A DNA stretch of 64,000 nucleotides from the NCBI GenBank assembly GCA_963721765.1, contig CAVRJP010000001.1, positions 1,445,145-1,509,144 on the forward strand, written 5' to 3'. The notes below the pieces were generated by a model. That model made no database searches, was not told where the DNA came from, and was given only the letters and a program-made list of their open reading frames with translations. The first letter of the stretch is position 1; each line of letters opens with the position of its first letter. Source of the stretch: an uncultured Chloroflexia bacterium (lineage in GTDB: Bacteria > Chloroflexota > Limnocylindria > Limnocylindrales > CSP1-4). Shown here piece by piece: positions 33,390-48,102 of this stretch. Both the position numbers and the translations under genes were made by a program.

Positions 33390-34368
33390 ATGACACGGCA
33401 GCGACGGATCCTCGCGATCGACGGTGGTGGCGTGCGCGGGATCATCCCCGCGCTGTGCCTGGAGGCGCTCGAGCGGGTAACCGGCCGGCCGGCGCGCGAG
33501 AGCTTCGACTTCCTGGCCGGGACCTCCACCGGCGCCGTCATCGCGGCGGCCCTGGCAGCGGGCATCCCCGCCGAGCGAATCGCCTCGCTCTACCGGCGAC
33601 GTGGGCCGGAGCTCTTTCGACAGACGCCGATCCTCGGCGTCCTGCGCCGAATCACGACCGGCCATCTCTATGACGTCGCGACGTTGCGCCGGATGATCGG
33701 CGAGGAGCTCGGCGAGCACGGAGCCTGGCGGATCAACGACGTCCCGAACGACATCATGCTGACCGCGAAGGGCCTCGACGACGGGCACCCGTGGTACTTC
33801 GTCAAGGATCGCGCGGAGACCGACAACGATCGGACCGGCGACCTGCTCCTCGCCGACTGTGTCACCGCCTCTGCCGCCGCGCCGACCTACTTCGCGCCGT
33901 GGTCGGTGGCGAGCATCGGGCTCTTGGTGGACGGTGGCGTCGGCGTTGCCGGCAATCCCGTGTACCAGGCCTGCGTCGAGGCATTCGAGTACACGTCGTC
34001 CTACGAGCCGTCGCAGTCGATCGTCGTCTCGCTCGGCACGGGCCGGTTCCTGGACCGCCCTCGACCGACGTGGCTGTGGTCGTGGGTCGAGTGGGTTCTC
34101 GGCGAGATGTTCCGATCACCGGGCGAGCAGCAGACCGAGCTCGTCCAACGCCACTACGGTGATGCGGCGCTCTACCGGATCGACGTCCGCCTCCCGCGCG
34201 ACTACCCGCTCGACACCCTCGGCGCGCGGCTTCGACGAGCTCGAGGACATCGGCCGCCGCCTCGCGGCGCTCATCGACTGGCCGGCGATCCTCGACGGCC
34301 GCGACGGCACCTTCAGGATCGGCCCGGGCGAGGCTCGCCCGGAGGCATACTGCCGCTACGTCAGCTGA
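33390..34368 (+). CDS. patatin-like phospholipase, frameshifted near 34230
   Basis: DGGGVRG, GTSTG, SAAAPTYF, DGGV. Confidence 0.9.
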
Positions 34369-34481
34369 CGTCCTGGGGCCTGTCCCTCTGCGACAATCGA
34401 CGCGTCCGCGACCACCGACGACGCGGCCAAGCGCCACGTCCCCCACATCTCGGCGCGCGCGGCAGAGCACGGAGGGCCACG

Positions 34482-34961
34482 ATGCCCACGAAGCATTCCC
34501 GCGTCCGGCTGGCGGCCGCCACCTTGTCCCTGTTGGTGCTGCTCGTTGCCGCTGGACCCACGCAAGGCGCAAGCCCGCCCCGACACGAGATCGACCTCTT
34601 CCAGTGCGCCCAGGCCGGCGGCTCGATCACGGTCCCCAGCGGAACCCCGTTCTACGTCGTCGACGGGTGGTTCGCCAAGACCCTCTGGCAGCAGGCAATG
34701 TTCCTGCTCAGCGTGAAGGTTCAGGTTGGAGTGGACGGAACGCCGATTGCCCACCCATTCCGCTACTGGACGAAGCCCACCTTCTCGGACGAGGATGGCC
34801 TCTGGTTCCTCCTTTGGAAGTACCCGCACGCGGCGCTCGGCCCAGGCGAATCGATCGTCTTCACGGAGGCATGGACCTTCCGTTTCCCGATCTATGACGG
34901 GTTCGAGTGGTTCCCCCGTGGCACCTTCCTTGACGAGACGTGCGTGATCACGGGCGCGTAG
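34482..34961 (+). CDS. secreted hypothetical protein
   Basis: RBS GGAGGG, signal peptide MPTKHSRVRLAAATLSLLVLLVAAG, aromatic-rich mature part. Confidence 0.65.
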   Translation: MPTKHSRVRLAAATLSLLVLLVAAGPTQGASPPRHEIDLFQCAQAGGSITVPSGTPFYVVDGWFAKTLWQQAMFLLSVKVQVGVDGTPIAHPFRYWTKPTFSDEDGLWFLLWKYPHAALGPGESIVFTEAWTFRFPIYDGFEWFPRGTFLDETCVITGA

Positions 34962-35021
34962 TCGTGTGAGCCCAGACGTCCTCAGACCCTGAGGCCCCGG
35001 CTCTCGGCCCGGGCCGTTCGG

Positions 35022-35405
35022 CTATGAACGCTCGGGCTCTCCGTGGCGCGCGGACGCATCCTGAAACCGGCCGCGGGCCTCCGCTTCGTCGACATCGGCC
35101 ATGGCGCTCTCGGCGTCCGCATCGGCCAGGTCAACCTGCGTGGTCTCGACGAGGAGCCGAGCCGCGGCGGCCGTCTTGACTGCGCTCGCCTCAGCCAGCG
35201 AGGCTGCGGCAAGGGCTGCTCTTGAGGCATCCGCGGTTGCAGTCGCAGCTTCCACCGCATCCTGCGCCGCGCGCGTCGCGACTTCGGCCGCGAGCTTTCC
35301 ACGGCGAGCGACGGCGGCCGCCCGTTCTGCTTCTCGCCACTCATTCAGGGCCTCGGGGATTCTCGACGACATCCGCACTGACTGATCTGACATTCGGAGC
35401 TCCAT
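35022..35405 (-). CDS. Ala-rich coiled-coil hypothetical protein
   Basis: [24 protein letters not shown]... helical composition. Confidence 0.6.
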
Positions 35406-35497
35406 TCTGCCTGCGCAGGTCAGCGTGACAGATGCTTGGATGCGAACGAGCGAGCCTTACCGCGTGCGTCGTAGGCAACGTGTTTTTGACGAGAGGG

Positions 35498-35574
35498 TGG
35501 TGGGCGACACTGGACTCGAACCAGTGACCTCTTGCATGTCAAGCAAGTGCTCTAACCAGCTGAGCTAGCCGCCC
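35498..35574 (-). tRNA. tRNA-Val(GAC)
   Basis: GGGCGGC/GTCGCCC acceptor stem, GCTC/GAGC D stem, CTTGC-TTGACAT-GCAAG anticodon arm, GGTTCGAGTCC T arm, encoded CCA. Confidence 0.97.
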
Positions 35575-35578
35575 CAGG

Positions 35579-35620
35579 TGCGACGCGAGTTCCGTCGCGC
35601 CGCCGAGGCATTCTAGCGCA
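35579..35620 (-). promoter_or_regulatory. tRNA-Val leader hairpin and -10 box
   Basis: TAGAAT (35610-35615) then CGCGA-CGGAAC-TCGCG hairpin; repeated three more times. Confidence 0.7.
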
Positions 35621-35700
35621 GGGTCGACCCCGGCTCGGCGCGACCATAATCTCCCCGGGGAGCACGGTCGGTACGCACGACATCGAGGTATCCCAGAGCG

Positions 35701-36795
35701 GTGCTTGACGTTGACGTCCTCGTGGTGGGCGCGCGGGTCGCGGGCTCGGTGACGGCCGCGCTCCTTGGGGATGCCGGCTACCGCGTCCTGCTTGTGGATG
35801 CGGCGACGTTTCCCAGCGATACGATCTCGACCCATTTCTTCCGTGGAGCCGGCTTGGGCGGTGTACTGTCCCGCCTCGGCCTTCTCGATCGCGTGCTCGC
35901 CCTTGGCTGTCCACCGCTGACAGTCGAATACGACTATGCCGGGGCAGACCCCGAGCCAACGGTCGGGCCGCCGCAGGATCCGGGTGACGTCGGGTTTTGC
36001 CTCTCCTGTCGAAGGCTCACCCTCGATGCGCTTCTCGTCGACCGTGCAAGGTCGAGCCCGGGAGTCGAGGTCTGGCAAGCCGCACTGGCGAGCCGCCTCC
36101 TCTTCGAGGATGGCCGCGCCACCGGCGCATTCGTGGAGCGCGCGGGATCTGGTGTCGACGTCCGGGCCCGCCTCGTCGTGGGCGCGGATGGCCGCGGGTC
36201 GCGCATCGCGCGCTGGGTCGAGGCCGGCGAGGTTCGGCGGGAGACCGCCTCGCGAGGTTTGTATTTCCGGTATTTCGCCGGATTTCCGCCACCCCGGGCG
36301 ATCGCGGACGGACCGGAGTTCTCCGTCGTCGGAGACGAGATGGCCTATGTCTTCCCGAGCGACGACGGCGTCACGTGCATCGCGGTATCGATCAACCTCG
36401 ACGTCTTTCAGCAGTTCCGCACCGACCGCGACACCGCCTTCGAGGCACGGCTCGCCCGCCACATTGGCCTCTTCGATCGCTACCGGGCTGCGTCTCCCGT
36501 AAGCGCGGTTCTCGGGTCCGGACCTGTTGACGCCATCTGCCGACAGCCATCAGGCGCGGGGTGGGCTCTCGTCGGGGACGCTGGCATGCATCAGGATCCG
36601 TGGACGGGATTGGGCATGGACAACGCAAGCATGCATGCGACCTTCCTCGTCGATGCGATCGACGACTGGCTGTCGGGCCGCTCTGGCGAGGGCGCGGCAT
36701 TCGCCGAGTACGGCCGGCGACGGGACGACCACGCGCTGGAGGGCTTCAACGAGACTGCCCGACTGGGCCGGGATCTCTCGCAGCTCGTCAGTTAG
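35701..36795 (+). CDS. FAD-dependent oxidoreductase (geranylgeranyl reductase/monooxygenase-like)
   Basis: DVLVVGARVAG, VVGADG, LVGDAG..DPWTGLG. Confidence 0.85.
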   Translation: MLDVDVLVVGARVAGSVTAALLGDAGYRVLLVDAATFPSDTISTHFFRGAGLGGVLSRLGLLDRVLALGCPPLTVEYDYAGADPEPTVGPPQDPGDVGFCLSCRRLTLDALLVDRARSSPGVEVWQAALASRLLFEDGRATGAFVERAGSGVDVRARLVVGADGRGSRIARWVEAGEVRRETASRGLYFRYFAGFPPPRAIADGPEFSVVGDEMAYVFPSDDGVTCIAVSINLDVFQQFRTDRDTAFEARLARHIGLFDRYRAASPVSAVLGSGPVDAICRQPSGAGWALVGDAGMHQDPWTGLGMDNASMHATFLVDAIDDWLSGRSGEGAAFAEYGRRRDDHALEGFNETARLGRDLSQLVS

Positions 36796-36798
36796 ACC

Positions 36799-36960
36799 AC
36801 GATAACTCGCCCATTCTCGCTCGCCGAGATCGTGCTGAGAGCTGCCGACCCTACACCGCTCAGGGGCGGGAGGCATGTCAAGCAAGTGCTCTAACCAACT
36901 GAGCTAGCCGCCCGAGAGTGCGACGTGAGTTCCGTCACGCCGCCGGCGAATTCTAACGCA
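36799..36960 (-). repeat. tRNA-Val-derived repeat 1 (promoter + leader + 5' 41 nt of tRNA + conserved arm)
   Basis: 36873-36913 matches tRNA 35534-35574 at 40/41 nt; leader and -10 TAGAAT retained. Confidence 0.93.
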
Positions 36961-37159
36961 CGCGTTTGCGACGCCGACCGGAGCGCCGAGCGAACTCCGC
37001 AGGCTTGAAGCCGAACTCGATCACGTCCGAGATCCGTCGATGGTCGCCATGCCCAGGAGCTTGATCGGTCGCACGAGCTTCGACGCGGATGAAGCCTTAG
37101 CCACGGTTTCGCCGTTTGGCAGGATGATAGATTCATCTCCTCGCTGGAGGAGTCGACCG

Positions 37160-37636
37160 ATGTGGGCGTTCGTCATCGCACGGGGGCGCCACGTCGGGTT
37201 GGTGCTCGGGCTCGGCCTGCTGGCGGCCTGCGGAGGCGGCGGCCCCACAGTCACGGGCTCCCCATCGACGCCAGGGCCTGGTCCGGCGACGCCTCCACCC
37301 TCCTCCGTCGTTAGTACCGGGCAGGGTGTTGGCGCGGAAGGCACGGCGCGTGTCGTGGCCGAGGGAGTGACGACCACGCTCGGTGTCGACGATTGCACCA
37401 TGGTGTCGAGCACGATCATCGTCGTCGCGACGAATGCCGCAGACGGCGCGAGCCTCTCCATGGCGGGGACCGCCGGCGCCGCGAGCATCGAATTCAGACG
37501 AGGGGGCGATCAGTGGGTCGCGGCGGGGGCGACCGTCACGATCAGCGGGTCCACCATCTCCTACGACGGCGTCGCATTGAAGGCGGGCGGAGACCCGCCA
37601 GAGGCCCAGATCTCGCTCGAGGTCGTCTGCCAATAG
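37160..37636 (+). CDS. lipoprotein
   Basis: RBS GGAGG, lipobox LAAC, Pro/Thr linker. Confidence 0.75.
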   Translation: MWAFVIARGRHVGLVLGLGLLAACGGGGPTVTGSPSTPGPGPATPPPSSVVSTGQGVGAEGTARVVAEGVTTTLGVDDCTMVSSTIIVVATNAADGASLSMAGTAGAASIEFRRGGDQWVAAGATVTISGSTISYDGVALKAGGDPPEAQISLEVVCQ

Positions 37637-37749
37637 CCGGGTAGATTGACCCGCGGACAGCGACCGGCCCACCGCGGCGGAGGCGATCGCGATCGGCGGG
37701 TCGACGATCGCCGCGCTTGGTCCGCCAACCGGCCCTCGATCCCGAATAC

Positions 37750-37912
37750 CGCGATAACTCGGGCGCGTTCGCTCGCGGACCTGTGTTCGAAAGAAGTCGA
37801 CCTACACCGCTCGTGGGCGGGAGGCATGTCAAGCAAGTGCTCTAACCAACTGAGCTAGCCGCCCACGCGGTGCGACGCGAGTTCCGTCGCGCCGCCGGCG
37901 AATGATATCGCA
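37750..37912 (-). repeat. tRNA-Val-derived repeat 2
   Basis: 37824-37864 matches tRNA at 40/41 nt; arm gataactcg..gctcgc..cctacaccgctc..gggcgggag shared with repeat 1; -10 TATCAT. Confidence 0.93.
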
Positions 37913-37934
37913 GCCCTCTTCTCCGGCTCTCGAG

Positions 37935-38642
37935 TCAGCCCAACAGCAGGGCAATCCCCAGGGCAATGAGCCAGAGCGACCAGCTGATGTACGCGAGCGG
38001 CACGATCGCGCCGGCGAGCGGCCAGCCGCGCTCTTCGTTCGGGCCGACGAACTCGAGCGTTCCGATCAGCAGCGCAACGCCGACCGGGATGCCGACCAGG
38101 CCGAGCCAGCCGGGCAGAACCGCGGTCGACAGGATTGACCAGGCGACGAGGAGCGTCCACAGGCCCGTGAGGAGGTAGCCGAGGTGCTCGCCGATCCCGA
38201 CCCCGAGGAGGCGATGAAGCGTCGCGAAGACGACCTTAATCGTCCGGCGGGTGGCCGCCGCGTCGGCGGCCTCCGCGGCGTCCGCGGCGACGTACTGTCG
38301 AGCGAGCTCGGGCACGGCGAACGGCCAGCGCACGAGGCCGAGTGCTTGCACCAAGGCCGCGCCGGCGCCGATGACGATCGAGGCGACGCCTAGCGCCACC
38401 GGCGGCGCCAGCGCGACCGCAACCAGTGCGACGAGCGGCAGCATCGCGAGCGCGCTGACCAGGAGCGCCTGCCAGCGCAGGATTAGGCCGGAGCCACCCG
38501 CGTGGAATCTGCGAAGGATCACGTCTGGCTCCTTGCGCAGGATGTTCGGGTACTCGAACGCTCGGCCCAGCTCAAAGAACGCGAGATTGAAGGCGAGGGG
38601 CACCATGATCAGGAGGACCCCCGCCGCGAGCTCAACGCTCAT
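37935..38642 (-). CDS. multi-pass membrane protein (DUF4386-like)
   Basis: FEYPNILRKEP, LGLVRWPFAVP, GVGIGEHLGYL; about six TM segments. Confidence 0.7.
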   Translation of the reverse strand: MSVELAAGVLLIMVPLAFNLAFFELGRAFEYPNILRKEPDVILRRFHAGGSGLILRWQALLVSALAMLPLVALVAVALAPPVALGVASIVIGAGAALVQALGLVRWPFAVPELARQYVAADAAEAADAAATRRTIKVVFATLHRLLGVGIGEHLGYLLTGLWTLLVAWSILSTAVLPGWLGLVGIPVGVALLIGTLEFVGPNEERGWPLAGAIVPLAYISWSLWLIALGIALLLG

Positions 38643-39045
38643 GGTCAATCCTTCGCGTGGCCAAGACCATGCGAATGGCAGCGGCGACAGCGATGAACAA
38701 GCCCACCACGTGCATAACGCTGCCAACGAGAACACCGATCCTGGCCGTGTCGGTCAGCTGTTCGATAAAGGTGCCCGTCATGACCGCGGCGACGATTGCG
38801 CCGACGCCCAGAACCAGCGGTACAACAAGCGCTAGGTACGCGGTCCACCTGCCGGGTCGCAGCAGCACGATGAAGGCAGCAACGAGCAGGACGATTGGGC
38901 CGGCAAAGCTCGGATAGAGCGACGATCCGGCGGCGATCTGCAGCACCATGCCGGCGGCAGTGAGAACAAGGCCCGTCGCGCTTCCCTTGGCCGCATTTGA
39001 GAGCTGGTGGCCCGGATCGATGGCGACGCGTACGGGAGTGGTCAC
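38632..39045 (-). CDS. small membrane protein
   Basis: four hydrophobic segments, RBS AGGAGG, overlaps next start. Confidence 0.65.
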   Translation of the reverse strand: MTTPVRVAIDPGHQLSNAAKGSATGLVLTAAGMVLQIAAGSSLYPSFAGPIVLLVAAFIVLLRPGRWTAYLALVVPLVLGVGAIVAAVMTGTFIEQLTDTARIGVLVGSVMHVVGLFIAVAAAIRMVLATRRIDHER

Positions 39046-39090
39046 GGTCAACCTCCTTCTCTCGGACACTGTGCCCCGTTCCGCTGAGGT

Positions 39091-40017
39091 TCAGACCGCG
39101 CAAGTCCCGCTGTTGGACGCGTGCAGGCTGTTCAGGCTGGCGCCCAATGCCTCTTGTGGGATCAGTGTGCGCCCGCGAGCGTCGCTTACTAGCGTCCGAC
39201 GGACTTGGGCCGTTGCGCAGCGGTCGTGTGACTGGACATATCCTTCCTCGACGAATACTCCAGAATTCGCCACGCCGGACCCTGGCGAATAGTTCGGAGT
39301 GGGCGGGTCAGCAGGCGTCTCGAGCGTGGGCGTGGGTTCCGGCGTTGCCGGAGGGTCGGCCGGCGTGGCCGGCGGCGCCGTAGGGACCCTGTCGAAGTTC
39401 GCCACGAGGAGAGCCTTCTGCTTCTTCTGCGTGAACGTGATCGGCGAGCAATCGTCGTGACGCTCGGTCGAGTAGTCCTCCCAGATGACGTAGAAGTACG
39501 TGCACACGGAATCCGCACGGTGGGCGGCGGTCGCGGTCACCTCGGTGCCGGGCGGAACCTCGTAGTAGCAGCTCGCAGGCCTCGAGCGGGTCGTGCAGCG
39601 GTAGGTGTCGCCGGCTGCCACCACGGTCACCCTGCCGAAGCCGACATCGGCGTCGGTACTGCCATTGGTCGTGATGAGCACGGACACGTACGGGTACACG
39701 GGCATGATCGTCGGATCACATGGCGTGACGTACGGGTTGCATCCGGATGGCGGGCTTGTTCGTCGCGGGGTTGCGCGTGCGCTTGGTGACGGCAGCGCAC
39801 TCGGATCGTCCGATGCCTCGCCGATCTCGGTCGGCGCGGGACTTGGCTGGATGTCGATGAAGGACTCAGGCGGCTCAGTCTGCCCGCGTGATGGCACAAC
39901 GCCGACTGCGCCGACGGGTGGGCTCGACGGGATTGGCTGCCGAACGGACGTCGCTACCACGGCGACGGCACTGAGGGCCACGGCGGCGAGGACGCTGCTG
40001 ATCGATGCACGGCGCAT
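39091..40017 (-). CDS. exported Pro/Thr-rich protein with Cys-containing beta domain
   Basis: N-terminal hydrophobic segment, Pro-rich linkers, CTTRSRPASCYYEVPPGTEVTATA. Confidence 0.55.
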   Translation of the reverse strand: MRRASISSVLAAVALSAVAVVATSVRQPIPSSPPVGAVGVVPSRGQTEPPESFIDIQPSPAPTEIGEASDDPSALPSPSARATPRRTSPPSGCNPYVTPCDPTIMPVYPYVSVLITTNGSTDADVGFGRVTVVAAGDTYRCTTRSRPASCYYEVPPGTEVTATAAHRADSVCTYFYVIWEDYSTERHDDCSPITFTQKKQKALLVANFDRVPTAPPATPADPPATPEPTPTLETPADPPTPNYSPGSGVANSGVFVEEGYVQSHDRCATAQVRRTLVSDARGRTLIPQEALGASLNSLHASNSGTCAV

Positions 40018-40141
40018 GGCACCGCCCGATGTCAGCGCGGACGGAGTGAGGTCCGACGACGTCTCGACGGCGGCTTCCTGATGGTCCGGAGGGCGCACGG
40101 CGCGCAGTGTACGGGTCGGATCGGTCGAGACCGGTGCCTGC

Positions 40142-40193
40142 GGGCGACGAGGCATGTTTAAGCACGTGCTCTAGCCAGCTGAGCTAGCCGCCC
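40142..40193 (-). repeat. tRNA-Val-derived repeat 3 (degenerate, no adjacent leader)
   Basis: 40152-40193 differs from the tRNA by 3 substitutions and 1 insertion; followed by CTC-GTCGCCC. Confidence 0.85.
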
Positions 40194-40294
40194 GAGGTTC
40201 GAACTCAAGTACCCACATTGCCCTGCGTTCTTACGTCATCGGGTCTGCCTACACGCGGATGGCCCAAAGTCACGATTTCCGGTGACACCAGCCG

Positions 40295-41107
40295 GTGCTA
40301 ACGTCCGCCAACGCTACTGGGGGTTACGTGCGCCGGAAGGCCTTGATCGTCCGCGCGACAACCATCGTCCTCGCGGGGATCGTGCTCGCGGTGGTCGGGT
40401 CCTGGGCCGTCAAGACGATCGAAGATCGAAATGAAACTGCACGCACCACCGAGCGCTTCGATCCGCCGGTCTGGGCTGGGCAGAACTTCCTGGCTGGATG
40501 CGCCGGAGGGTTCTACGCCCGCCACGAGTCCACGATCGTGCTCGTCATGAGCGCGCATTGCGGCTATCCAGGACTCGAGCTTCGAGACGAACAACAGGGC
40601 CAGGTGATCGGCGTCCTCGGCCCGCGCGCCGAGCTCGCTGACTGTCCGGAGGGCCGCTTCTGCGCACCGTCCGACATCCTCACGCTCGCCCTGGCGCCCG
40701 ACCGTATCCCGTGGGGCCACCTGAACATGGTCGACATGGGCGCCGGTGGCTACCGGACGTTCGACGCCGGAACCAAGCCACTCGCCTGTTCCGATATCGC
40801 CGTCGGCGACCGATTGGAGATCAACGGTCGGGAGCACTATCGCTCGGGGACCGTGATCGAGATCGGGTCGTACGAGCACGAGACGGACACGATCTTCCCG
40901 TGCATGGTCGTCGGCGACCGCATCGTCACGGTCGGCGACTCCGGCGGCGCCGTGCTGGTGCGAGGCTTGCCGGCGGGGATCGTCGCGCGCGAGCTCGGCG
41001 GGAAATTTGGGTTCACGCCGCTCGCGGAGGGCCTCGACAACCTGAATCTGAGCCTGTGCACGACGCCCGACTGCGACTTGTCTCCGGATCGGGCGGTCCA
41101 GCCCTGA
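40295..41107 (+). CDS. S1 (trypsin-like) serine protease, membrane-anchored or secreted
   Basis: CAGG..SAHC, SDILTL, GDSGG catalytic motifs; N-terminal TM. Confidence 0.75.
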   Translation: MLTSANATGGYVRRKALIVRATTIVLAGIVLAVVGSWAVKTIEDRNETARTTERFDPPVWAGQNFLAGCAGGFYARHESTIVLVMSAHCGYPGLELRDEQQGQVIGVLGPRAELADCPEGRFCAPSDILTLALAPDRIPWGHLNMVDMGAGGYRTFDAGTKPLACSDIAVGDRLEINGREHYRSGTVIEIGSYEHETDTIFPCMVVGDRIVTVGDSGGAVLVRGLPAGIVARELGGKFGFTPLAEGLDNLNLSLCTTPDCDLSPDRAVQP

Positions 41108-41112
41108 TTCAG

Positions 41113-41136
41113 CGGGCGGCCCGAATGGGCCGCCCG
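41113..41136. terminator. hairpin between convergent genes
   Basis: cgggcggccc-gaat-gggccgcccg. Confidence 0.6.
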
Positions 41137-41144
41137 TTCCACAT

Positions 41145-42053
41145 CTATTCGAAGGTCATCGACTCGACGATGGCGTCCATCTCGTCGACGACGGCCTGCG
41201 GGGTTCCCTCGTAGTACCCGGCATCGATGACCACGAGCTCCCCGTCGACTTCCAGGATCCAGAGCTTGTCGATCTGACCCGGACCCTGGTGGTAGCGCGC
41301 CGGCGTTGTTTCGGAGTTCGCGCCCCAGCTCCCGAAGAGGCCAAAGTCGCACGCGGCGAAATCGGCTTCATTGGGAACGTGGAGGGTCATCGACTTGCCT
41401 GCGATCCCGCCGAGCGTGACGTCCACCGGGGCGGCCGCCGCCCGAGATGCCTGGGCTGACATGGCGGCGACGAACGCGTCCACCGAGGTGGATGGGCTGT
41501 CCGGCTTGGTCGTTTCCCACATGCAGGGGTCGCCGTAGACGTACAGGTCGTCGCCGGCGAAGACGATCAGCCCGGCACCTGCGGGAGGGTTGGGATTGTC
41601 ATGCTTGGTCAGAATCCCTCCTCCTTGTTCGCCGAACCAGTCTGTAGCCGGGATAGTGACGCTCATCGGCACGCCTTGACCCAGCAGGACGTGCCGTCCC
41701 TCGTCGAGCAGACCTTGCGGTCGATTGGTTGGCCTTGTCGTCGGCGCGGCGGACGGCGGCTGAACCGTCGGCTCTGCCGACGGTTGCGGCGATGTCCCGC
41801 CGAAGCCCGGCGTTCTTGGCAGGAAGTTGAATGCCGCGACGGCGACCACCACGACGATGGCAGCGCCACCAAGCATGAGAACGGATCGGTTCATCGGAAT
41901 TCTCCCCAGGAGCACGCCCCAGCCTCGCTGCTGCCGCGTCCTGCGCGTCTGGTCGAAGGTCGCGCGGAGGACACGATCGGGCAGGCGGCTCGGAGCGTCG
42001 GCCTCGAGCCATCCGCTGATCGTTCGGTCGAGCTTTCGATCGGCTGACATCAC
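41145..42053 (-). CDS. probable anti-sigma factor with TM and extracytoplasmic domain
   Basis: coupled to ECF sigma; LDRTISGWLE..PDRVL..TRQ N-terminus, one TM, Pro linker. Confidence 0.7.
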   Translation of the reverse strand: MMSADRKLDRTISGWLEADAPSRLPDRVLRATFDQTRRTRQQRGWGVLLGRIPMNRSVLMLGGAAIVVVVAVAAFNFLPRTPGFGGTSPQPSAEPTVQPPSAAPTTRPTNRPQGLLDEGRHVLLGQGVPMSVTIPATDWFGEQGGGILTKHDNPNPPAGAGLIVFAGDDLYVYGDPCMWETTKPDSPSTSVDAFVAAMSAQASRAAAAPVDVTLGGIAGKSMTLHVPNEADFAACDFGLFGSWGANSETTPARYHQGPGQIDKLWILEVDGELVVIDAGYYEGTPQAVVDEMDAIVESMTFE

Positions 42054-42601
42054 GCAGTCCTGTTCTGGGCGGCCGTCGGCTTACGCAGATCGGCTTCGAG
42101 GGCCGCCCGCATTGCCTCCGTCGCATAGTGAAGTCGTGATCTGGCAGTTCCCGGCGGAATGCCCAGCATCTGTGCGATCTCGGACGCCGAGAACCCGCTG
42201 TAGTAGTGCAGAACCATCACTGACCGCTGTTCGGGCTTGAGTCGGCTGAACCCGCGCTCCAGCTGATCCCGATCGGCGACAGATCCGGTGTCGTCGGCGA
42301 TCGCAGTTTCGAGCACGAGCGGTCGTACCTGCTCCGACCGGCGCCGCAGCTGACGACCCTGGTCGGCGCAGGCATTGACCACGAGGCGATAGAGCCAGGC
42401 GTCGAACCGGTCGGGATCGCGCAGTCCGGGAAGCTGCTGCCACGCGCGTACCAGCGCTTCCTGCACCGCGTCCTCCGCGAGGTCCGTCGACCGAAGGATC
42501 AGGCGCGCAACCGCGTACAAGCGGTCGCCGGCGGAGGTCGCGAGGACTTCGAATGCCTCGTGGTCTCCGTGACGAGCCGCCTCGATGAGATCGCGCCTCA
42601 T
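42050..42601 (-). CDS. ECF sigma-70 factor
   Basis: GDHEAF, AEDAVQEA, FDAWLYR, EIAQMLGIPPGTARSRL. Confidence 0.93.
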   Translation of the reverse strand: MRRDLIEAARHGDHEAFEVLATSAGDRLYAVARLILRSTDLAEDAVQEALVRAWQQLPGLRDPDRFDAWLYRLVVNACADQGRQLRRRSEQVRPLVLETAIADDTGSVADRDQLERGFSRLKPEQRSVMVLHYYSGFSASEIAQMLGIPPGTARSRLHYATEAMRAALEADLRKPTAAQNRTA

Positions 42602-42747
42602 TCCCTCTCCATCACCAACGCGGCCTCGATGACCGCGCTGGTTGTTATGACGGACGTGGCAGTCTCATCTACTCAATCACCGCCGCGACGGGACGGATCG
42701 GTCTTGGCCGAGATCCGCGATGACGCAGGGCGGTCGCATTGTGGGTT

Positions 42748-42963
42748 TCACGCGTTGTGAGCCCCGGCCCCGGTATGGTCCTGAAAGATCTCCTCGATCG
42801 ACAGTCCGAAGAGCCGCGCCAACCTGAACGCCAGCGGCAGGCTGGGGTCGTACTTGCCGGTTTCGATGGCGTTGACGGTCTGTCGCGACACCTCTAGCGC
42901 ATCCGCCAGGTCTGCCTGAGTCCAGTCGCGCTCCGCGCGCAGGACCTTGAGTCGGTTCTTCAA
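42748..42963 (-). CDS. small XRE/Cro HTH regulator
   Basis: LKNRLKVLRAERDWTQADLADALEVSRQTVNAIETGKYDPSLPLAF; TTG start overlaps upstream stop. Confidence 0.9.
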   Translation of the reverse strand: MKNRLKVLRAERDWTQADLADALEVSRQTVNAIETGKYDPSLPLAFRLARLFGLSIEEIFQDHTGAGAHNA

Positions 42964-43403
42964 CGGTACCGTCGCGAGCCGGCGATGCATCCGACCACGT
43001 AGACGACCGACATGAACGCGATCAGGTGCCCGATCTCCGCCTCGAACGCGACCAGGTCGTGCCGATCGAGCAGCGCCCAGGCCACGCCTCCGACCAGCCC
43101 GGCGCCAAGCGTCCACGCCATCGCCTCGAGCTGGACGGTGCGCTGCAATTCGTCCATTGCGTGCAGGTAGCGCTTGTACGAGAGCAGCATGCCGGCGCCG
43201 ACCACCACGCTGAAGGCGAGCGCCAACACGGTCGGCGCGGGCTGGTCGTTCCAGAGGATTCGCGGTCCAAAGTTGGCGAGGACGACGCTCGCGACCCATG
43301 CCGCGGTCCAGGCGACCAGGCCCAAGGCGCCACGGATGCTCCGCAACATCCAGGCATCAGCGTTCGCAGGCGGCGTGTTCACGGTGTCGATCCTCCTTGT
43401 CAT
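42960..43403 (-). CDS. membrane protein partner of the XRE regulator
   Basis: four TM segments, MDELQRTVQLEA motif. Confidence 0.75.
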   Translation of the reverse strand: MTRRIDTVNTPPANADAWMLRSIRGALGLVAWTAAWVASVVLANFGPRILWNDQPAPTVLALAFSVVVGAGMLLSYKRYLHAMDELQRTVQLEAMAWTLGAGLVGGVAWALLDRHDLVAFEAEIGHLIAFMSVVYVVGCIAGSRRYR

Positions 43404-43531
43404 TTAGTCAAGTTAGCACGACACAATGCTGCCATGGCCCGGGCACAGACGTCAAGGGTCATTGACACGGCCCTGCGGCGCAAACCAGCCCAACCTGGCG
43501 CCCTCGTCAGCGGTACCGAATGATCGTCGAC

Positions 43532-44251
43532 CTAGCTAGCCGCGTTCGCGGCCCGCTTCGTGGCCACGACCAGGATCGTCATCGGGTACTCCGGGTCCTG
43601 CACGTCGAGCTTGGCGGTCGAGACCTCTTCCAGCGCGATTCCGCGGAGGAAGCTGGTGGCCGCGTAGACGTTGCCGCGGTAGTCGACGCTGACGTTGGCG
43701 GCGCCGAAGACGTCCCCGAACGCGCGCGCCGCGGATTGAGGCGTGAAGCGCCAGAAGTCGCCCCAGCGATCGGCATCGCCCTTCGAGATCTGGCTGATGC
43801 CGGCAAGCGTCGCCAGCAGCACGCCGCCCGGAGCGAGCAGGTGGTGGGCGCCGCGAATCGCGGCGTGCGCGTCGTAGATGTAGTTGAACGTCTGCGTGCA
43901 GATGAAGCAGTCGATCACCCCGGCCGGCAGCGTAGACGTGTCGGTCAGGTCGCCGACGATCGTCGCGTCGGGATGGCCTGCCACGTGCAGCATCCCGAAC
44001 TGCGTGACGTTGTCGCCGCCGTATCGCCGGGTGTATGTAGTCTCGGCGACCTCCAGGACCCTTCCGCGGACAAGTCCGCGGTGCCGCTCGAGGAAGCCCT
44101 CGATGTAGTACCGGTCGAGCGGGGTGCCCCGTTCGCGACCGAAGAGCCGCCCTACGGGTTCAGTCGAGCTCTCGAGCAGGCGGCTCGGGCGGAAGAGGTT
44201 CCGATTGACGATCGCGAGGACCTTGCGGGCGATGGCGATCATCCGGGACAT
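43532..44251 (-). CDS. class I SAM-dependent methyltransferase
   Basis: GTPLDRYYIE, GRVLEV, DCFICTQT, LAPGGVLL, WRFT. Confidence 0.8.
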   Translation of the reverse strand: MSRMIAIARKVLAIVNRNLFRPSRLLESSTEPVGRLFGRERGTPLDRYYIEGFLERHRGLVRGRVLEVAETTYTRRYGGDNVTQFGMLHVAGHPDATIVGDLTDTSTLPAGVIDCFICTQTFNYIYDAHAAIRGAHHLLAPGGVLLATLAGISQISKGDADRWGDFWRFTPQSAARAFGDVFGAANVSVDYRGNVYAATSFLRGIALEEVSTAKLDVQDPEYPMTILVVATKRAANAAS

Positions 44252-44292
44252 GCGCGCCACGATAGCCCGGCCGCCCCCGGGAATCATGGAAA

Positions 44293-44334
44293 TGCGACGT
44301 GAGTTCCGTCACGCCGCCGACGAATCCTAGCGCA
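44293..44334 (-). repeat. orphan copy of the tRNA-Val leader hairpin and -10 box
   Basis: tgcgacgtgagttccgtcacgccgccg..aatcctagcgca, near-identical to 36919-36960, no tRNA fragment attached. Confidence 0.88.
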
Positions 44335-44452
44335 TGCCCCCCGAGGGCGACCGAACCTGCGAACCGCGCGGCGGATAATCGAACCGAAGACCCTGCCACA
44401 GCATCGTACGAGTCGAGCGGACCTGCCAAGAGGGCCGCACCGAGGTCGAGAC

Positions 44453-44998
44453 GTGGAGCGCGAGTTCGTGGAGCAGGCGCAGAACGGCAATCAAGCGGCT
44501 TTTGCGGAGATCGCCTTCGCCGTGAGCCCGCGGCTGTTCGCCGTGGCGCAGCGGATCCTCCGCGACTATCACCTCGCCGAGGACGCGACGCAGCAGGCGA
44601 TCGTCCTCATCTGGCGGAAGCTGCCGCAGCTTACCGACCCGGAGCAGTTCGACGGCTGGGCGTACCGGATCCTCGTGAACTCGTGCTACGCGGAAGCTCG
44701 CCGTGGTCGTCGCACCGTCTCGGCGATCCATCTCCTGGAATCCGATGCAACGGCCGCTGACACCCAGTTGACCGTCGCCGACCGCGACCAGCTGGATCGA
44801 GCCTTCGTTCGCCTATCCACGGAGCAGCGGGCGGTTCTGGTTCTGCAGTACTACCTGCAGCTGGACCAGCCGAGGATCGCGGAGGTCCTCGGCATCCCGA
44901 TCGGCACGGTCAAGTCACGGTCATCGAGCGGCCGAAGCGTGCTTCGTTCTGCCCTGGAGGCCGACGCGCGCCCTGGCATCAGGAGCCGGACGGCATGA
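44453..44998 (+). CDS. ECF sigma-70 factor
   Basis: GNQAAF, AEDATQQA, FDGWAYR, IAEVLGIPIGTVKSR. Confidence 0.93.
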   Translation: MEREFVEQAQNGNQAAFAEIAFAVSPRLFAVAQRILRDYHLAEDATQQAIVLIWRKLPQLTDPEQFDGWAYRILVNSCYAEARRGRRTVSAIHLLESDATAADTQLTVADRDQLDRAFVRLSTEQRAVLVLQYYLQLDQPRIAEVLGIPIGTVKSRSSSGRSVLRSALEADARPGIRSRTA

Positions 44999-46428
44999 CT
45001 GGCAACGAGGAATTCATGCGCAATTCCGACCTCGACGCCCTCCTGGGAGCGTGGTTGAGGGAAGGCGACGACGGTGCTTCCGACCGGATCGCCGAGCGTG
45101 CCCTGCTTGAAGTTGCCGCGACGCTTCAGGAGGGCCGGCCGCGGCAGTCTCTTTGGGCATCGTTCGCGCGAAGCCGGCCGACATCGATCGCCGCGGCCTT
45201 CGGGGCGGTCGCGGTGGCTGTCGCTTTGGGCGTCGTGACAAGCGTGCCGCTGATCGGACCCGGGCCTCCCCCGATCATGAGCCCAAGCCCCCGGCCGAGC
45301 CCCACGGTTGACCCGGATGCCCTCGTCCTGTTCACGTCGCCCGACAACGGCTATGAGGTCTTGATTCCCGTCTCGTGGAGCGAGGTCGAGTCCGGCGCGC
45401 CGGACGCTCGGAAGTGGGTCGGACCCGACGGTGAGCTGATGGTCAGCTACGGGACGTCGATCTTCGATGGCGGCGAGGTCACGGCGTGCGCACCACCACT
45501 GTCGGACTACAACACCTGCATGACCCTCGAGCACGGCTACTCCGTTCCCTTCGATCCGAAGGTCGACGGCGTCGGCCCGATCTCGATGGAGGTCTGGCTC
45601 GATCGGTGTGACGGCGCGTGTCCCGTAACCGCCACCCCGTCCAGTCTCGACCAGGAGGTCGCCGGTCAGGACCGCGCTGTGATCGCGGGTCGGCAGCTGA
45701 CCTACGTCTCGACCTTCCACAACCGACGTCCGGTCATCGTGTACTGGAGCGAACCCATCGCCCTGGCTGACGAAGCGCGCGTCGAAGAGATGCGGAGCAG
45801 CTTCCGATTCCTCGACCCCGCGCCTGGCGCCAGCGAAACGCCATTCGTCGATCCGACCGAGCTCGTAGAGTTCAGGAACGACGACGATGCGTACCGGCTG
45901 CTCCTGCCGCGGTTCTGGCTGAACTCCAGCCCGGGCTCGCCGTCGCCAGATCCGGATCATCCCAGGGTTCGCACGTTCGGGTTCGGTGGTGGCGCCGGCA
46001 CGAGGGGCTCGCCAGCCCTCACGATCAGCATCGGTGAACCGGACGGATCGGTGTCCTTTTGCGTGGGACGCTGTCGCACCGTCGTTGCCACGACGCTCGA
46101 CGAGCTCGAGGCCGAGCTGGTCAGCTTGTTGTCCGATGCTGGTTCGGCAGGAATCGAGGAGCTTCACGGCGAGGTCATGCTGGGCGGTGAGGCGGGCAGG
46201 TTCGAGCGGCCCGACTACGCCAACCACGGCGGGCCGGATTCCATCCTGGGAACGGGAGGGACAAGCGGCAGCAACTGCCTCGGCTGTCCCGGAATGCTGT
46301 ACCAGGCCTACGCGTTCCACGACGGTCGGCCCGTGGTCCTCGCGTTCGACTACTGGACCCTCGCGTTCGAGCGGATCAGCTCGGAGTACGCCGTCCAGAT
46401 CCTCGAAAGCTTCGAGTTCCTGGACTAG
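44995..46428 (+). CDS. probable anti-sigma factor with two extracytoplasmic domains
   Basis: ATGA-coupled to ECF sigma; LDALLGAWLRE N-terminus, TM, repeated VDP..LV.F...D..Y....P..W and ending SFRFLD/SFEFLD. Confidence 0.7.
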   Translation: MTGNEEFMRNSDLDALLGAWLREGDDGASDRIAERALLEVAATLQEGRPRQSLWASFARSRPTSIAAAFGAVAVAVALGVVTSVPLIGPGPPPIMSPSPRPSPTVDPDALVLFTSPDNGYEVLIPVSWSEVESGAPDARKWVGPDGELMVSYGTSIFDGGEVTACAPPLSDYNTCMTLEHGYSVPFDPKVDGVGPISMEVWLDRCDGACPVTATPSSLDQEVAGQDRAVIAGRQLTYVSTFHNRRPVIVYWSEPIALADEARVEEMRSSFRFLDPAPGASETPFVDPTELVEFRNDDDAYRLLLPRFWLNSSPGSPSPDPDHPRVRTFGFGGGAGTRGSPALTISIGEPDGSVSFCVGRCRTVVATTLDELEAELVSLLSDAGSAGIEELHGEVMLGGEAGRFERPDYANHGGPDSILGTGGTSGSNCLGCPGMLYQAYAFHDGRPVVLAFDYWTLAFERISSEYAVQILESFEFLD

Positions 46429-46558
46429 GCCTCGATGGGACACCCGATGGATCAGAACGATCGCACCAGGATCCGGGGCCTTCGCCACCAATCATTGCGC
46501 GCATCGAGGGCGGGAGGCCGCCCGGCGCGGCTGGAGGCAGCGATCGGGACTCTTGCGC

Positions 46559-46897
46559 CTAGTCGATCTCGATCGACTCGCGGCCGGTGGCGGCTCGGGA
46601 GCGAGCTTCGGCATCCTCGATGCGGTTGAGCCAGAAGTCGAGGATCGAGCGCAGGCCCAGCAGCTGTTCGCGGCCCGCGTTGCGGAAGTGTTGGGATGCC
46701 TCGGGCGGCATGACCCGATCCATCATCCGCCGGCCGCGCTCCCGCAGGGTCGGCTCGCCCTCGAGACGGGCGAGCCGCTCCTCGAGCTCGGCCATGCGGA
46801 GCTCCGCACCTGCCTCGGGCAGCCCGGGCGAGGCCGTCCCGCTCGATCGCCGCTTCGACCCGGCTCGCGCGCCCGCGCCGCCCCGACCCTCGCTCAT
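46559..46897 (-). CDS. small helical protein downstream of ArsA-like ATPase
   Basis: MPPEASQHFRNAGREQLLGLRSILD; translationally coupled. Confidence 0.65.
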   Translation of the reverse strand: MSEGRGGAGARAGSKRRSSGTASPGLPEAGAELRMAELEERLARLEGEPTLRERGRRMMDRVMPPEASQHFRNAGREQLLGLRSILDFWLNRIEDAEARSRAATGRESIEID

Positions 46898-48102
46898 CGT
46901 CGTCCTCCACGCTTCGCCGGCGCCGCGTCGCCGCGGCCCTGGAACCGGATTCGCAGCACGCCGTCGTCCATCTTCGCACCGATCGTCGGCGCGTCCACCA
47001 GCGCGCGCGGCAGCACGATCGTGCGTCGCAGGCCATCGACCTGGAGCGAGAGCTCGTCGCCGTCGCGCTTGAGCTGGATCGCCTCGCGCGAGGTGAACGG
47101 CAAGGCAACCTCGAGGACGAGATCCTTTCCTTCGGTTCGGACCTGGTAGGGCCGGCCGCGGTAGAAGAACTCGGTCGGGTCGTCCTCGCCGAACAGCGCC
47201 GCGCCGATCTCCGCCAGTCGGTCGAGCCCGATCATCTCCCGGTCGAACTGGGGCACCGTCCGGACCGGCACGGGCGCGTACTGCGCGATCACCTCGGGCA
47301 GGTAGCGCTGCTGCGTCGCGCGGAGGGTGCCGAACGTCCCGTCGCCGGCCATCTCAGAAGGAAGCACGCGGTTGCAGACCACCAGGTCGGCGGGATAACC
47401 GAACAGGTGGAAGTACGTGAACGAGCGCTGCGCCTCGACGATCGACAGCTTCTCGAGGTTCAGCGCGATTCGCACCGACGACTGTTCCGGATCGGCCAGC
47501 AGGCGATGGACCTTGTCGAGCCGGTTGAGCAGCCGCTCGGCTGCCGCGAAGACCTCGTCGCGCGGCATCGGCACGCCGATCATCCGCTCGAGCATCGGCC
47601 GTCCGATGCGGCTGACCCGTCGCCCGATCGGCGCGATGCGCTCGATCCACCACCGGCTCGCTTCCGGCAACGACAACAGGCGCAGCGTCTCGCCCGTGGG
47701 CGCGGCGTCGACGACGATCACGTCGTAGTCACCCGACTCCACGTGATCGGCGATCCACAGCAGGTTGCCGAGCTCGTCCATGCCGGGCAGGACGGTCATC
47801 TCCTCGGCGAGCACCTCGTCGAGCCCGCGCCAGCTGAACAGCTCGGCCATGTACCGCTGGATCGTCTTCCAGTAGCGCTCGATGTTGTGGTAGACGTCCG
47901 GCTCCTGGCCCCACAGGTTCGGCGCGATCAGCGTCGGCTCGGGACCGAGCGGCAGCTCGAACGCGTCGGCCAGGCTGTGCGCGATGTCCGTCGACAGGAC
48001 CATCGTCCGATGGCCGCGCTTCGCGCTCAGCACCGCCGTCGCCGCGGCGATGCTCGTCTTGCCGACGCCACCTTTGCCCGTGTACAGGAGGATCCGGGTC
48101 AT
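46894..48102 (-). CDS. ArsA/Get3 family ATPase with C-terminal HSP20-like domain
   Basis: TGKGGVGKTS, STDIAHSL, VDAAPTGETLRLL, C-terminal LALPF..RTIVLP..AKMDDGVLRIRF. Confidence 0.88.
   Translation of the reverse strand: MTRILLYTGKGGVGKTSIAAATAVLSAKRGHRTMVLSTDIAHSLADAFELPLGPEPTLIAPNLWGQEPDVYHNIERYWKTIQRYMAELFSWRGLDEVLAEEMTVLPGMDELGNLLWIADHVESGDYDVIVVDAAPTGETLRLLSLPEASRWWIERIAPIGRRVSRIGRPMLERMIGVPMPRDEVFAAAERLLNRLDKVHRLLADPEQSSVRIALNLEKLSIVEAQRSFTYFHLFGYPADLVVCNRVLPSEMAGDGTFGTLRATQQRYLPEVIAQYAPVPVRTVPQFDREMIGLDRLAEIGAALFGEDDPTEFFYRGRPYQVRTEGKDLVLEVALPFTSREAIQLKRDGDELSLQVDGLRRTIVLPRALVDAPTIGAKMDDGVLRIRFQGRGDAAPAKRGGRR

Follow-up and report, generated by a model that had tools for sequence, protein, structure and literature searches.

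The locus described here raises the question of why the 5' half of a transfer RNA (tRNA) gene recurs several times upstream of the intact gene, with unrelated genes between the copies. It lies in the genome of an uncultured Chloroflexia bacterium (Limnocylindrales, CSP1-4), on a stretch of 64,000 nt (assembly GCA_963721765.1, contig CAVRJP010000001.1, positions 1,445,145 to 1,509,144) that is referred to as the window and numbered from its first letter. The window sits in a 1.94-Mb contig and contains a tRNA-Val(GAC) gene, next to which at least four, probably five, integrase-less units have probably accreted to form an array (35575-44337). At slightly better than even probability, we regard the repeats as attL-type scars of small integrative elements of 7-14 kb, the array having become integrase-less by repeated insertion and loss of the integrase side. 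All genomes compared are metagenome assemblies; G000 is the genome of the window and g1 its genus, other G-codes denote genomes and L-codes loci or contigs.

The tRNA gene and its repeated 5' half

The tRNA-Val(GAC) gene (35498-35574, minus strand; 68.5 bits against Rfam RF00005) is the sole tRNA called by ARAGORN in the window. Its 5' 41 nt (35534-35574) have two close same-strand copies, 36873-36913 and 37824-37864, each with a single mismatch; a 41-nt match to the tRNA occurred in none of 100 dinucleotide shuffles of the sequence. The fourth copy (40152-40193) is more diverged, carries a 1-nt insertion and was missed by the search allowing up to three mismatches, but was recovered by a repeat search and by blastn (88-90% over 45-51 nt). 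Three copies agree with the tRNA as far as TTGACATGC, 2 nt past the anticodon loop, and continue with CTC where the tRNA has AAG. The spacing between successive copies is 1339, 951 and 2329 nt. The repeats, the shared break point and the CTC had been described in a first-pass annotation of this DNA, and the repeat search and alignments bear them out, as they do the unit sizes of 1339 and 951; the third, given there as 2328, is 2329 nt.

Sequence on both sides of the repeated tRNA half is repeated as well. About 45-50 nt upstream of the tRNA recur (35579-35623, 36919-36963 and 37871-37915, repeat family D2), and a further copy of this segment at 44293-44337 is followed by just the first few nt of the tRNA. 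This arm also precedes the tRNA in the element-free genus members G005, G009 and G015 and is called host-type here. Beyond the break, about 95 nt, termed J, are conserved among the window copies and among species, a feature absent from the first-pass annotation. The J blocks are TGAGCGGTGTAG, GAGCACG, GCGAGCGA and AGTTATCGTGG, and the conserved blocks are direct repeats of GAGCG. The tRNA, the sites c1 to c3 and the outermost site were located as follows.

35498-35574, minus strand: intact tRNA-Val(GAC), the present target site, with 5' half, core and native 3' half (ARAGORN, Rfam RF00005)
35575-35630, minus strand: host-type left arm of the tRNA, with an extended -10 box (TGCGCTAGAAT) and a leader hairpin of ~35 nt (repeat family D2; same arm in element-free genomes)
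36873-36968, minus strand: site c1, tRNA 5' half (36873-36913, one mismatch) with host-type left arm (repeat search, alignments)
36780-36872, minus strand: J arm of site c1, corresponding to the P' arm of the element, with blocks TGAGCGGTGTAG, GAGCACG, GCGAGCGAGAA and AGTTATCGTGG (alignment with array copies and with attL of integrase-bearing elements)
37824-37920, minus strand: site c2, tRNA 5' half (37824-37864, one mismatch) with host-type left arm and -10 box TATCAT
37730-37823, minus strand: J arm of site c2 (alignments)
40060-40193, minus strand: site c3, older and decayed, a J remnant (40060-40151) and the tRNA 5' half with the 1-nt insertion (40152-40193)
44262-44337, minus strand: outermost site, degraded; of the 5' end of the tRNA, just GGGGGCGGC follows the host-type arm (44293-44337)

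Decay of the sites is linked to their distance from the tRNA: c1 and c2 are about 90% alike, c3 is ~63-88% alike, and the sites farther out are fragmentary. Outside this locus, the tRNA-half repeat was not found in the 3.30-Mb, 6-contig assembly. The tRNA-Val(GAC) of the array is itself not unique in the genome, since a second, different tRNA-Val(GAC) gene is present in G000 (C1:1932618-1932692). An 88-nt tRNA-Val call by ARAGORN at C5:27949-28036 of the same genome lies within an apparent coding sequence and is probably false.

J was also considered as an RNA element, and this was rejected. A search of 34500-47000 against Rfam at E ≤ 1 returned just the tRNA, single-sequence folding at three sites gave z-scores of -0.72, +0.75 and +1.08, and RNAalifold found no consistent consensus helix in 15 J copies (window c3, too diverged, was omitted from this alignment).

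Integrase-bearing elements at the same tRNA

The J arm of the window copies matches the attL arm of integrase-bearing elements inserted at the same tRNA in six other genomes. Because J is shared with these attL sites, it represents the P' arm of the element, and the window repeats are att scars of this element family. In G340, which belongs to another genus, 6.8 kb separate an upstream 5' half with J from the intact tRNA-Val(GAC), and the gene 91 nt from the tRNA 5' end, pointing away from it, encodes a tyrosine integrase (PF00589, 95 bits). Elements of 9.9-14.1 kb are found between an attL (native arm, 5' half and J) and the tRNA in G075, G161, G246, G313 and G128. In all six genomes the integrase gene adjoins the tRNA 5' end and is directed away from it. 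All 41 nt are common to attL and attR in five of the six, and identity ends at position 41 in every one. Replication genes (Prim-Pol and/or AAA_25) are present in G075, G161 and G246, with a primase-like match in G340; metal transporters, restriction-modification genes and a Mutator-family transposase are among the cargo. The first-pass annotation had proposed elements devoid of an integrase gene of their own, which these larger islands with the same att site contradict.

Of 401 genomes sampled from the family, 224 have homologues of the integrase at E ≤ 1e-20, a cut-off loose enough to let in remote tyrosine recombinases as well (identity fell to ~32% among the matches checked). The unpublished genomes G141 and G250 count only in such family-wide tallies. 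A tRNA placed as in G340 accompanies 25 of the best 30 integrase loci, tRNA-Val(GAC) in 8 and tRNA-Pro(TGG) in 17; the remaining five showed no tRNA within the stretch fetched. The integrases at tRNA-Val(GAC) are 63-100% identical to the query (100% being G340 itself) and those at tRNA-Pro(TGG) ~60-63%. The latter form a sister clade (17 loci among L052-L073) and sit divergently, ~90-190 nt from the tRNA 5' end. As this sister clade occupies the same divergent position, replacement of the 5' side is a property of the clade and not of one element.

From these elements a course of events can be proposed for the window. An element of 7-14 kb with a tyrosine integrase and a Prim-Pol/AAA_25 replication module, of the kind found in the window's family, would carry an attP composed of a left arm, P2 (~85 nt), the first 41 nt of tRNA-Val(GAC) and the right arm J (~95 nt). 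A crossover in the anticodon-loop region would displace the host promoter and 5' half and join them to J, while the 5' half of the element would be joined to the host 3' half, so that the tRNA is rebuilt. At least four, probably five, such insertions would have taken place in this genome, the newest unit adjoining the tRNA. Each time the integrase and P2 side would have been lost, either by deletion with P2 left behind, as at c3, or by a host-type arm being swapped in, as at c1, c2 and the tRNA. J and the J-proximal cargo would remain and a usable target would be restored; the array would now be fixed in place or reliant on an incoming helper.

The locus in related genomes

The flanks of the locus are conserved in relatives, with a patatin-like gene and the genes upstream of it on one side and an ArsA-type ATPase gene and its neighbours on the other. 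The distance from the tRNA to the ArsA-type gene is 493 nt in G009, 1.8 kb in G015 and 11.3 kb in the window, of which 8.8 kb (35575-44337) are the array; the other 2.6 kb, beyond the outermost scar, are also variable. On the opposite side, the stretch from the tRNA 3' end to the next conserved gene differs among genomes too.

Four further members of the genus carry copies of the 5' half with J at this tRNA: three in G022, two in G013, one in G001 and three distinct ones over four contigs in G428; G031 has a partial copy. This survey was made by pattern search, in which matches with two mismatches occurred at the level of a reversed-pattern control and were disregarded. The 13 window proteins encoded between the tRNA and the flank gene had no match at 1e-5 in the arrays of G013, G022, G428 and G001. 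A 67% homologue of the DUF4386 protein lies ~9.7 kb from the tRNA of G005, and the window sigma factor has a 28% match in G031. Presence and content hence vary among related genomes while the flanks stay conserved, as is characteristic of islands; the comparison of cassette content recommended in the first-pass annotation showed it to be entirely different among species, with almost no insert in G009 and G015.

G013 and G428 share one unit, which carries a cyclase/AAA/TPR gene and is 87-90% identical in nucleotides. Since core genes of the two genomes are 85-88% identical, recent transfer of this unit is not indicated. Relative to G013, G428 has an extra 2.85-kb unit (Abhydrolase_10 gene, GC 0.62) exactly after tRNA position 41. 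Together with the identity of J as an attL arm and the stronger decay of distal sites, this supports the first-pass view that insertions occurred one after another in the anticodon-loop region, rebuilt the tRNA and placed the newest unit next to it. The metagenome contig L125 has a tRNA-proximal 1.85-kb unit composed of J, an extracytoplasmic function (ECF) sigma factor gene and an anti-sigma factor gene, with a host-type arm at its end. Its sigma factor is 84% identical to that of the window (42050-42601), the anti-sigma factors only 36%. The sigma unit is known with either type of arm, as it has the element-type arm at window c3 and the host-type arm in L125. The fourth window unit probably consists of two, judging from the following sequence feature.

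42707-42765, minus strand: probable remnant of a J arm (distal half), tentatively a fifth, largely deleted site that splits unit 4 (~70% identity to the J of L125, including block ATCGCGG; shared leader downstream)

The related contig stretches are recorded as Chloroflexota or Ca. Limnocylindrales in 21 of 24 cases. The other three (Actinomycetota, Allosphingosinicella and Solirubrobacterales) were set aside as out-of-clade matches at the chance level estimated for 19 fixed bases.

These comparisons also bear on the possibility of an artefact, that is, misassembled metagenome repeats or a local duplication of tRNA fragments unrelated to mobile elements. Every genome involved is a metagenome bin, and G428 is 4% contaminated and contains two versions of a core gene. 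Nevertheless, the array lies in a 1.94-Mb contig of a 6-contig assembly, the same architecture with different cargo recurs in independent assemblies from different depositors, none of the 100 shuffles gave a match, and J matches the attL of integrase-bearing elements. Short exact contig pieces of unit 1, unit 3 and the region distal to c3 are also present in two further soil runs, none spanning a junction. We therefore consider an artefact or chance origin highly improbable. In four public read runs, 5-9% of the sampled words were found, all as contigs and in scattered short pieces; two joints in public runs, connecting 35530/35531 to 36887/36888 with 17 other letters between, are read as other tRNAs.

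Search for recombinases

No match to PF00589 or PF00239 was found in the window, and hence neither an integrase within the island nor an adjoining intI-type integrase. The first-pass statement that no integrase or transposase is recognisable stands for the integrase; transposase families were not systematically scanned. A tblastn search of 35000-47000 with the family integrase gave nothing below E = 2.4 and no integrase remnant. The three PF00589 matches of the window's genome are located 71-151 kb past the window end. The third of these recombinases (C1:1580039-1580596) resides in its own 3.3-kb islet at tRNA-Pro(GGG) (C1:1577822-1581193), ~69 kb past the window end. This islet features a displaced 3' tRNA fragment (nt 30-77, 98%) and is of the classic 3' type, unlike the tRNA-Val locus. 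Another small att scar was observed at tRNA-Ser(TGA) of G000 (C1:641768), where a 3' fragment (nt 33-86, 96%) lies 1.7 kb downstream (C1:643475-643529).

The first-pass annotation had postulated a recombinase acting in trans. At E ≤ 1e-20, no cognate integrase was found in G000, G013, G022, G428 or G031, in array-bearing assemblies that are 81-91% complete. The best integrase homologues in g1 are 32-54% identical, and those of G015, G006, G025, G325, G369 and G011 are located on contigs other than the one with tRNA-Val(GAC) (6/6 checked). Serine recombinases were found neither in G000, G022, G031 and G001 nor on the array contig of G013. A Xer-type mechanism, as in integrative mobile elements exploiting Xer (IMEX), was considered because G022 has only two tyrosine recombinases; it was dropped after integrase-bearing elements with the same arm turned up.

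Left arms of the sites

At the tRNA, c1, c2 and the copy at 44293, the arm is host-type, with the extended -10 box TGCGCTAGAAT or the TATCAT variant and the leader hairpin. Because a scan of 35300-44600 with the sigma-70 promoter consensus found no site, a promoter role is ascribed to this arm from its position and the extended -10-like box. The hairpin is formed at 35585-35615, 36925-36955, 37877-37907 and 44299-44329 and shows compensatory changes (CGCGA...TCGCG versus CGTGA...TCACG). It is present in element-free genomes of the genus too. It could be a processing or regulatory signal. The site of G001 has a TAGAAT box and no leader hairpin, and the partial site of G031 has no recognisable arm.

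The left arm P2 of the integrase-bearing elements is element-specific. Its ~85 nt include GAGCGGTGTAGG and extend up to the integrase start codon, while attL carries the host's own upstream region. The motif GAGCGGTGTAGG is common to P2 and J and is probably an integrase binding site. A P2-type arm is present in the arrays only at window c3, which had no match to native arms, and at G022 c1.

40194-40290, minus strand: left arm of site c3, of element type (P2) and homologous to the sequence that separates integrase and tRNA in integrase-bearing elements (aligned with G022 c1 and seven integrase-side arms)

Probable loss of the integrase side

Intermediates of decay were observed in relatives. 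In L100, only integrase residues 193-326 are left, joined to a fragment of a host flank gene, after which the native arm and the tRNA follow. As the integrase fragment abuts a duplicate of the host flank, the 5' half of the integrase gene and P2 were replaced by a native upstream copy. The integrase of G128 is split across two frames, and G269 has a 2-kb integrase-only unit between a decayed and a good site, with further cargo after it. Apart from G269, the integrase-carrying genomes have a single attL each and no arrays. Many integrase homologues contain an in-frame stop (often a single TGA, TAG or TAA), which suggests widespread pseudogenisation or, less likely, recoding.

Small units without an integrase also occur outside the genus. 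L093 (877 bp), L108 (840 bp) and L103 (2.5 kb) have the native-type arm of their own genus at both ends. The units at L093:5553-6520 and L108:3933-4860 are ~0.85 kb in size, adjoin tRNA-Val and have one lipoprotein-like open reading frame (ORF) each; the promoter variants GTGCTACGAT and GCGTTATGAT are found in both, with their positions at scar and tRNA swapped.

A number of observations weigh against accretion followed by loss of the integrase side. Simple tandem accretion would lead to P2 arms at internal sites and at the tRNA, which are mostly not seen; apart from the two P2-type sites, the sites compared and the tRNAs of G000, G013, G022 and G428 have the host-type arm. Repeated patching with DNA of the same species would be expected to leave longer and more varied pieces of flank, as in L100. 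Instead, homology to the outermost arm of the window extends over no more than 33-42 nt in three units and stops at about -52, and homology to the arms of other genomes of the genus reaches about -52 at most. J is intact at each of the ten sites in the genus that are well preserved. Of the 9 units (0.95-4.06 kb) in its arrays, 8 have exactly one intact ORF, the spacers are tight and gene fragments are absent; the units L093 and L108, whose lipoprotein-like genes are unrelated in sequence, have single ORFs too, beyond the genus. No integrase-bearing element of the clade was found at tRNA-Val(GAC) in g1 (31 genomes sampled, 5 re-examined), and at 81-91% completeness the absence of an integrase from array-bearing assemblies is unproven. 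Because of the single-ORF units, the complete J and the short arm homology, mobilisation in trans and homologous exchange stay alive as alternatives. A duplicated native flank beside the host-type arms of the window, comparable to that of L100, was looked for and not found, the homology ending at about -52.

Homologous recombination could act on such a locus after a few founding integrase events, the module of ~190 nt (host arm, 5' half and J) and the conserved flank anchoring unequal exchange between strains by which whole units are added or removed. All host-type sites of the genus share a left boundary that hardly varies from about -52, which is in line with this, as is the fact that the arm is always that of the host genus, the leader being long in g1 and of short types in L093, L108 and L103. 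It would account for the two promoter alleles with swapped positions in L093 and L108, for arrays in genomes without an integrase and for the whole-unit difference with clean boundaries between G013 and G428. It leaves unexplained, however, how the first unit with host-type arms on both sides arose; no direct sign of exchange was seen, and 93-190 nt is a short anchor. As the principal process we judge it quite unlikely, although it is compatible with accretion and decay and may be one step of them.

Units as possible mobile cassettes

The regularity of the units speaks for non-autonomous cassettes. According to this explanation, circles composed of a host-like arm, the 5' half, J and usually one gene would be captured and released at the tRNA by an integrase acting in trans, the tRNA serving as attI. 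A single ORF is present in 8 of 9 units of the genus and in L093 and L108, and J is whole at each well-preserved site. The host-type arm at most internal sites means the same left arm throughout, and if every site had the same left arm, integration and excision would be the same reaction. The extra unit of G428 at position 41, which contains only the Abhydrolase_10 gene, fits capture of a cassette, and so does the distribution of the sigma unit, which the window and L125 have and the more closely related G013, G022 and G428 lack.

Opposed to this are the failure to find a cognate integrase at E ≤ 1e-20 in G000, G013, G022, G428 and G031, the affiliation of the third recombinase of G000 with its own 3'-type islet at tRNA-Pro(GGG), and the single attL, rather than arrays, in the integrase-bearing genomes except G269. 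As host-type arms lack GAGCGGTGTAGG, circles bearing them would be attL-like and not attP-like, and we know of no route by which a host-type arm would first be placed on a circle. The ORFs lie in both directions (4 antisense and 5 sense to the tRNA in arrays of the genus), the fold z-scores of J (-0.72 to +1.08) give no signal, and no recent transfer is apparent for the unit common to G013 and G428. Cassettes moved in trans, as suggested in the first-pass annotation, are thus backed by the single ORFs and the prevailing host-type arms but are unproven and disfavoured; we consider them unlikely. A combined explanation, which we hold to be rather unlikely, is that tRNA-Val(GAC) is a gene-capture platform, at which mostly single-gene modules of host-type arm, 5' half and J are moved by a trans-acting integrase from visiting 7-14 kb elements or by homologous exchange; it would be integron-like, with each capture renewing the promoter.

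Cargo and flanking genes

The genes of the array were determined by ORF calling guided by the G + C content of third codon positions (GC3) and by Pfam. The first-pass description of unrelated cargo (flavoprotein, lipoprotein, membrane and exported proteins) agrees with translation and Pfam.

35701-36795, plus strand: unit 1, FAD-dependent oxidoreductase, antisense to the tRNA (Pfam FAD_binding_3, 4.9e-15; GC3 0.775)
37040-37636, plus strand: unit 2, putative lipoprotein of 198 aa with lipobox LLAAC (translation; no Pfam family)
37935-40155, minus strand: unit 3, three genes in tRNA direction, encoding a DUF4386 membrane protein (37935-38735), a membrane protein (38632-39069) and an exported protein (39091 to ~40017)
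40295-42601, both strands: unit 4a, 270-aa protein (40295-41107, plus), putative anti-sigma factor (41145-42053, minus) and ECF sigma factor (42050-42601, minus; Pfam Sigma70_r2/r4_2)
42748-44287, minus strand: unit 4b, HTH_3 regulator (42748-42960), membrane protein (42960-43403) and methyltransferase (43532-44287)
33390-34961, plus strand: conserved left flank, patatin-like protein, of which only the N-terminal 276 aa are conserved in relatives
46894-48102, minus strand: conserved right flank, ArsA-type ATPase (homologue in G009 493 nt from the tRNA)

The stop codon of the unit 1 oxidoreductase falls in the last conserved J block. The exported protein probably does not begin at the ATG at 40155, which falls within the tRNA fragment. 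The GC3 of the cargo is 0.75-0.89, compared to 0.91-0.95 in conserved genes of the left flank, a foreign composition. The flavoprotein was examined as possible cargo of other tRNA-Val arrays; of 65 other genomes in the genus, 5 have homologues of ~60% identity, in no case beside a tRNA or J.

A second ECF sigma/anti-sigma pair (44453-44998 and 44995-46428) is located between the outermost scar and the conserved flank, outside the array, and is absent from G009. It lies on the strand opposite to the first pair (42050-42601 and 41145-42053), and the two sigma genes form an 81-nt inverted repeat of 72% identity (42200-42280 versus 44774-44854). The sigma factor of L125 is 84% identical to the first window sigma factor and 47% to the second.

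Comparison with known systems

Like an integron, the array is a series of units, most of them with one ORF, that each end in a recombination site; growth is expected at the end with the fixed site. It differs in that no intI-type gene adjoins it, in that its sites consist of half a tRNA and integrase arms rather than folded attC hairpins, and in that integrase-bearing parents exist. The integron-like character claimed in the first-pass annotation is not supported by the orientation of the cargo, with ORFs running both ways, or by J, which is without fold signal.

The nearest concept is that of cis-mobilisable elements (CIMEs). These are att-bounded, have no recombination or transfer genes of their own and accrete with integrative and conjugative elements (ICEs) or integrative and mobilisable elements (IMEs), as in the ICESt1/ICESt3 family of Streptococcus; they are usually single and several kb in size. 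Like them, the window units are att-bounded, without recombination or transfer genes and in tandem at the target, and G269 has an integrase unit in such a tandem; unlike them, the window has rows of single-gene units.

In the ssrA islands of Dehalococcoides, the repeated part is reportedly the 3' end of ssrA. Repeated insertion of tandem islands at this gene, which encodes transfer-messenger RNA (tmRNA), reportedly builds a variable region with direct repeats of the gene end (PMC3146451), and the window array has likewise grown by site-specific insertions at one small-RNA gene.

A displaced 5' half had been presented in the first-pass annotation as a departure from the normal 3' duplication. 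It is not unheard of: according to the Islander publication, 159 of 3919 islands have a 5' fragment of the tRNA gene (tDNA), and tandem arrays comprise 125 of at least two and 4 of at least three islands (PMC4383910). The window agrees with Islander's 5'-fragment islands in the intact tDNA with same-orientation fragments upstream, the tyrosine integrase of the family, the probable anticodon-loop crossover and the tandems (PMC4383910). Same-strand 5' fragments upstream of the tRNA, a J shared with mobile relatives and a P2-type arm at c3 are what is expected of a tDNA island. In contrast to those islands, the window units are integrase-free, and the repeated sequence includes the complete promoter and leader, for the most part in the version of the host. 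Islander's definition demands an integrase and a length of at least 2 kb (PMC4383910); lacking an integrase and with units of 0.95 and 1.34 kb, the window array passes neither filter. The array is of a known kind with respect to its 5'-fragment and tandem islands, while the mostly single-gene micro-units and the repeated return of the host promoter arm are new here.

Arrays of this type would escape island finders that insist on an integrase and on a minimum length. The single-gene regularity and the return of the host arm go beyond textbook accretion and decay and raise the origin and mobility of integrase-less units as a testable question. The integrase clade documented here, from soil and freshwater bacteria not in culture, consistently exchanges both promoter and 5' half of the tRNA that it targets, and the much-used site forms a species-specific store of small accessory genes, many of which encode secreted proteins or lipoproteins, sigma factors and modifying enzymes.

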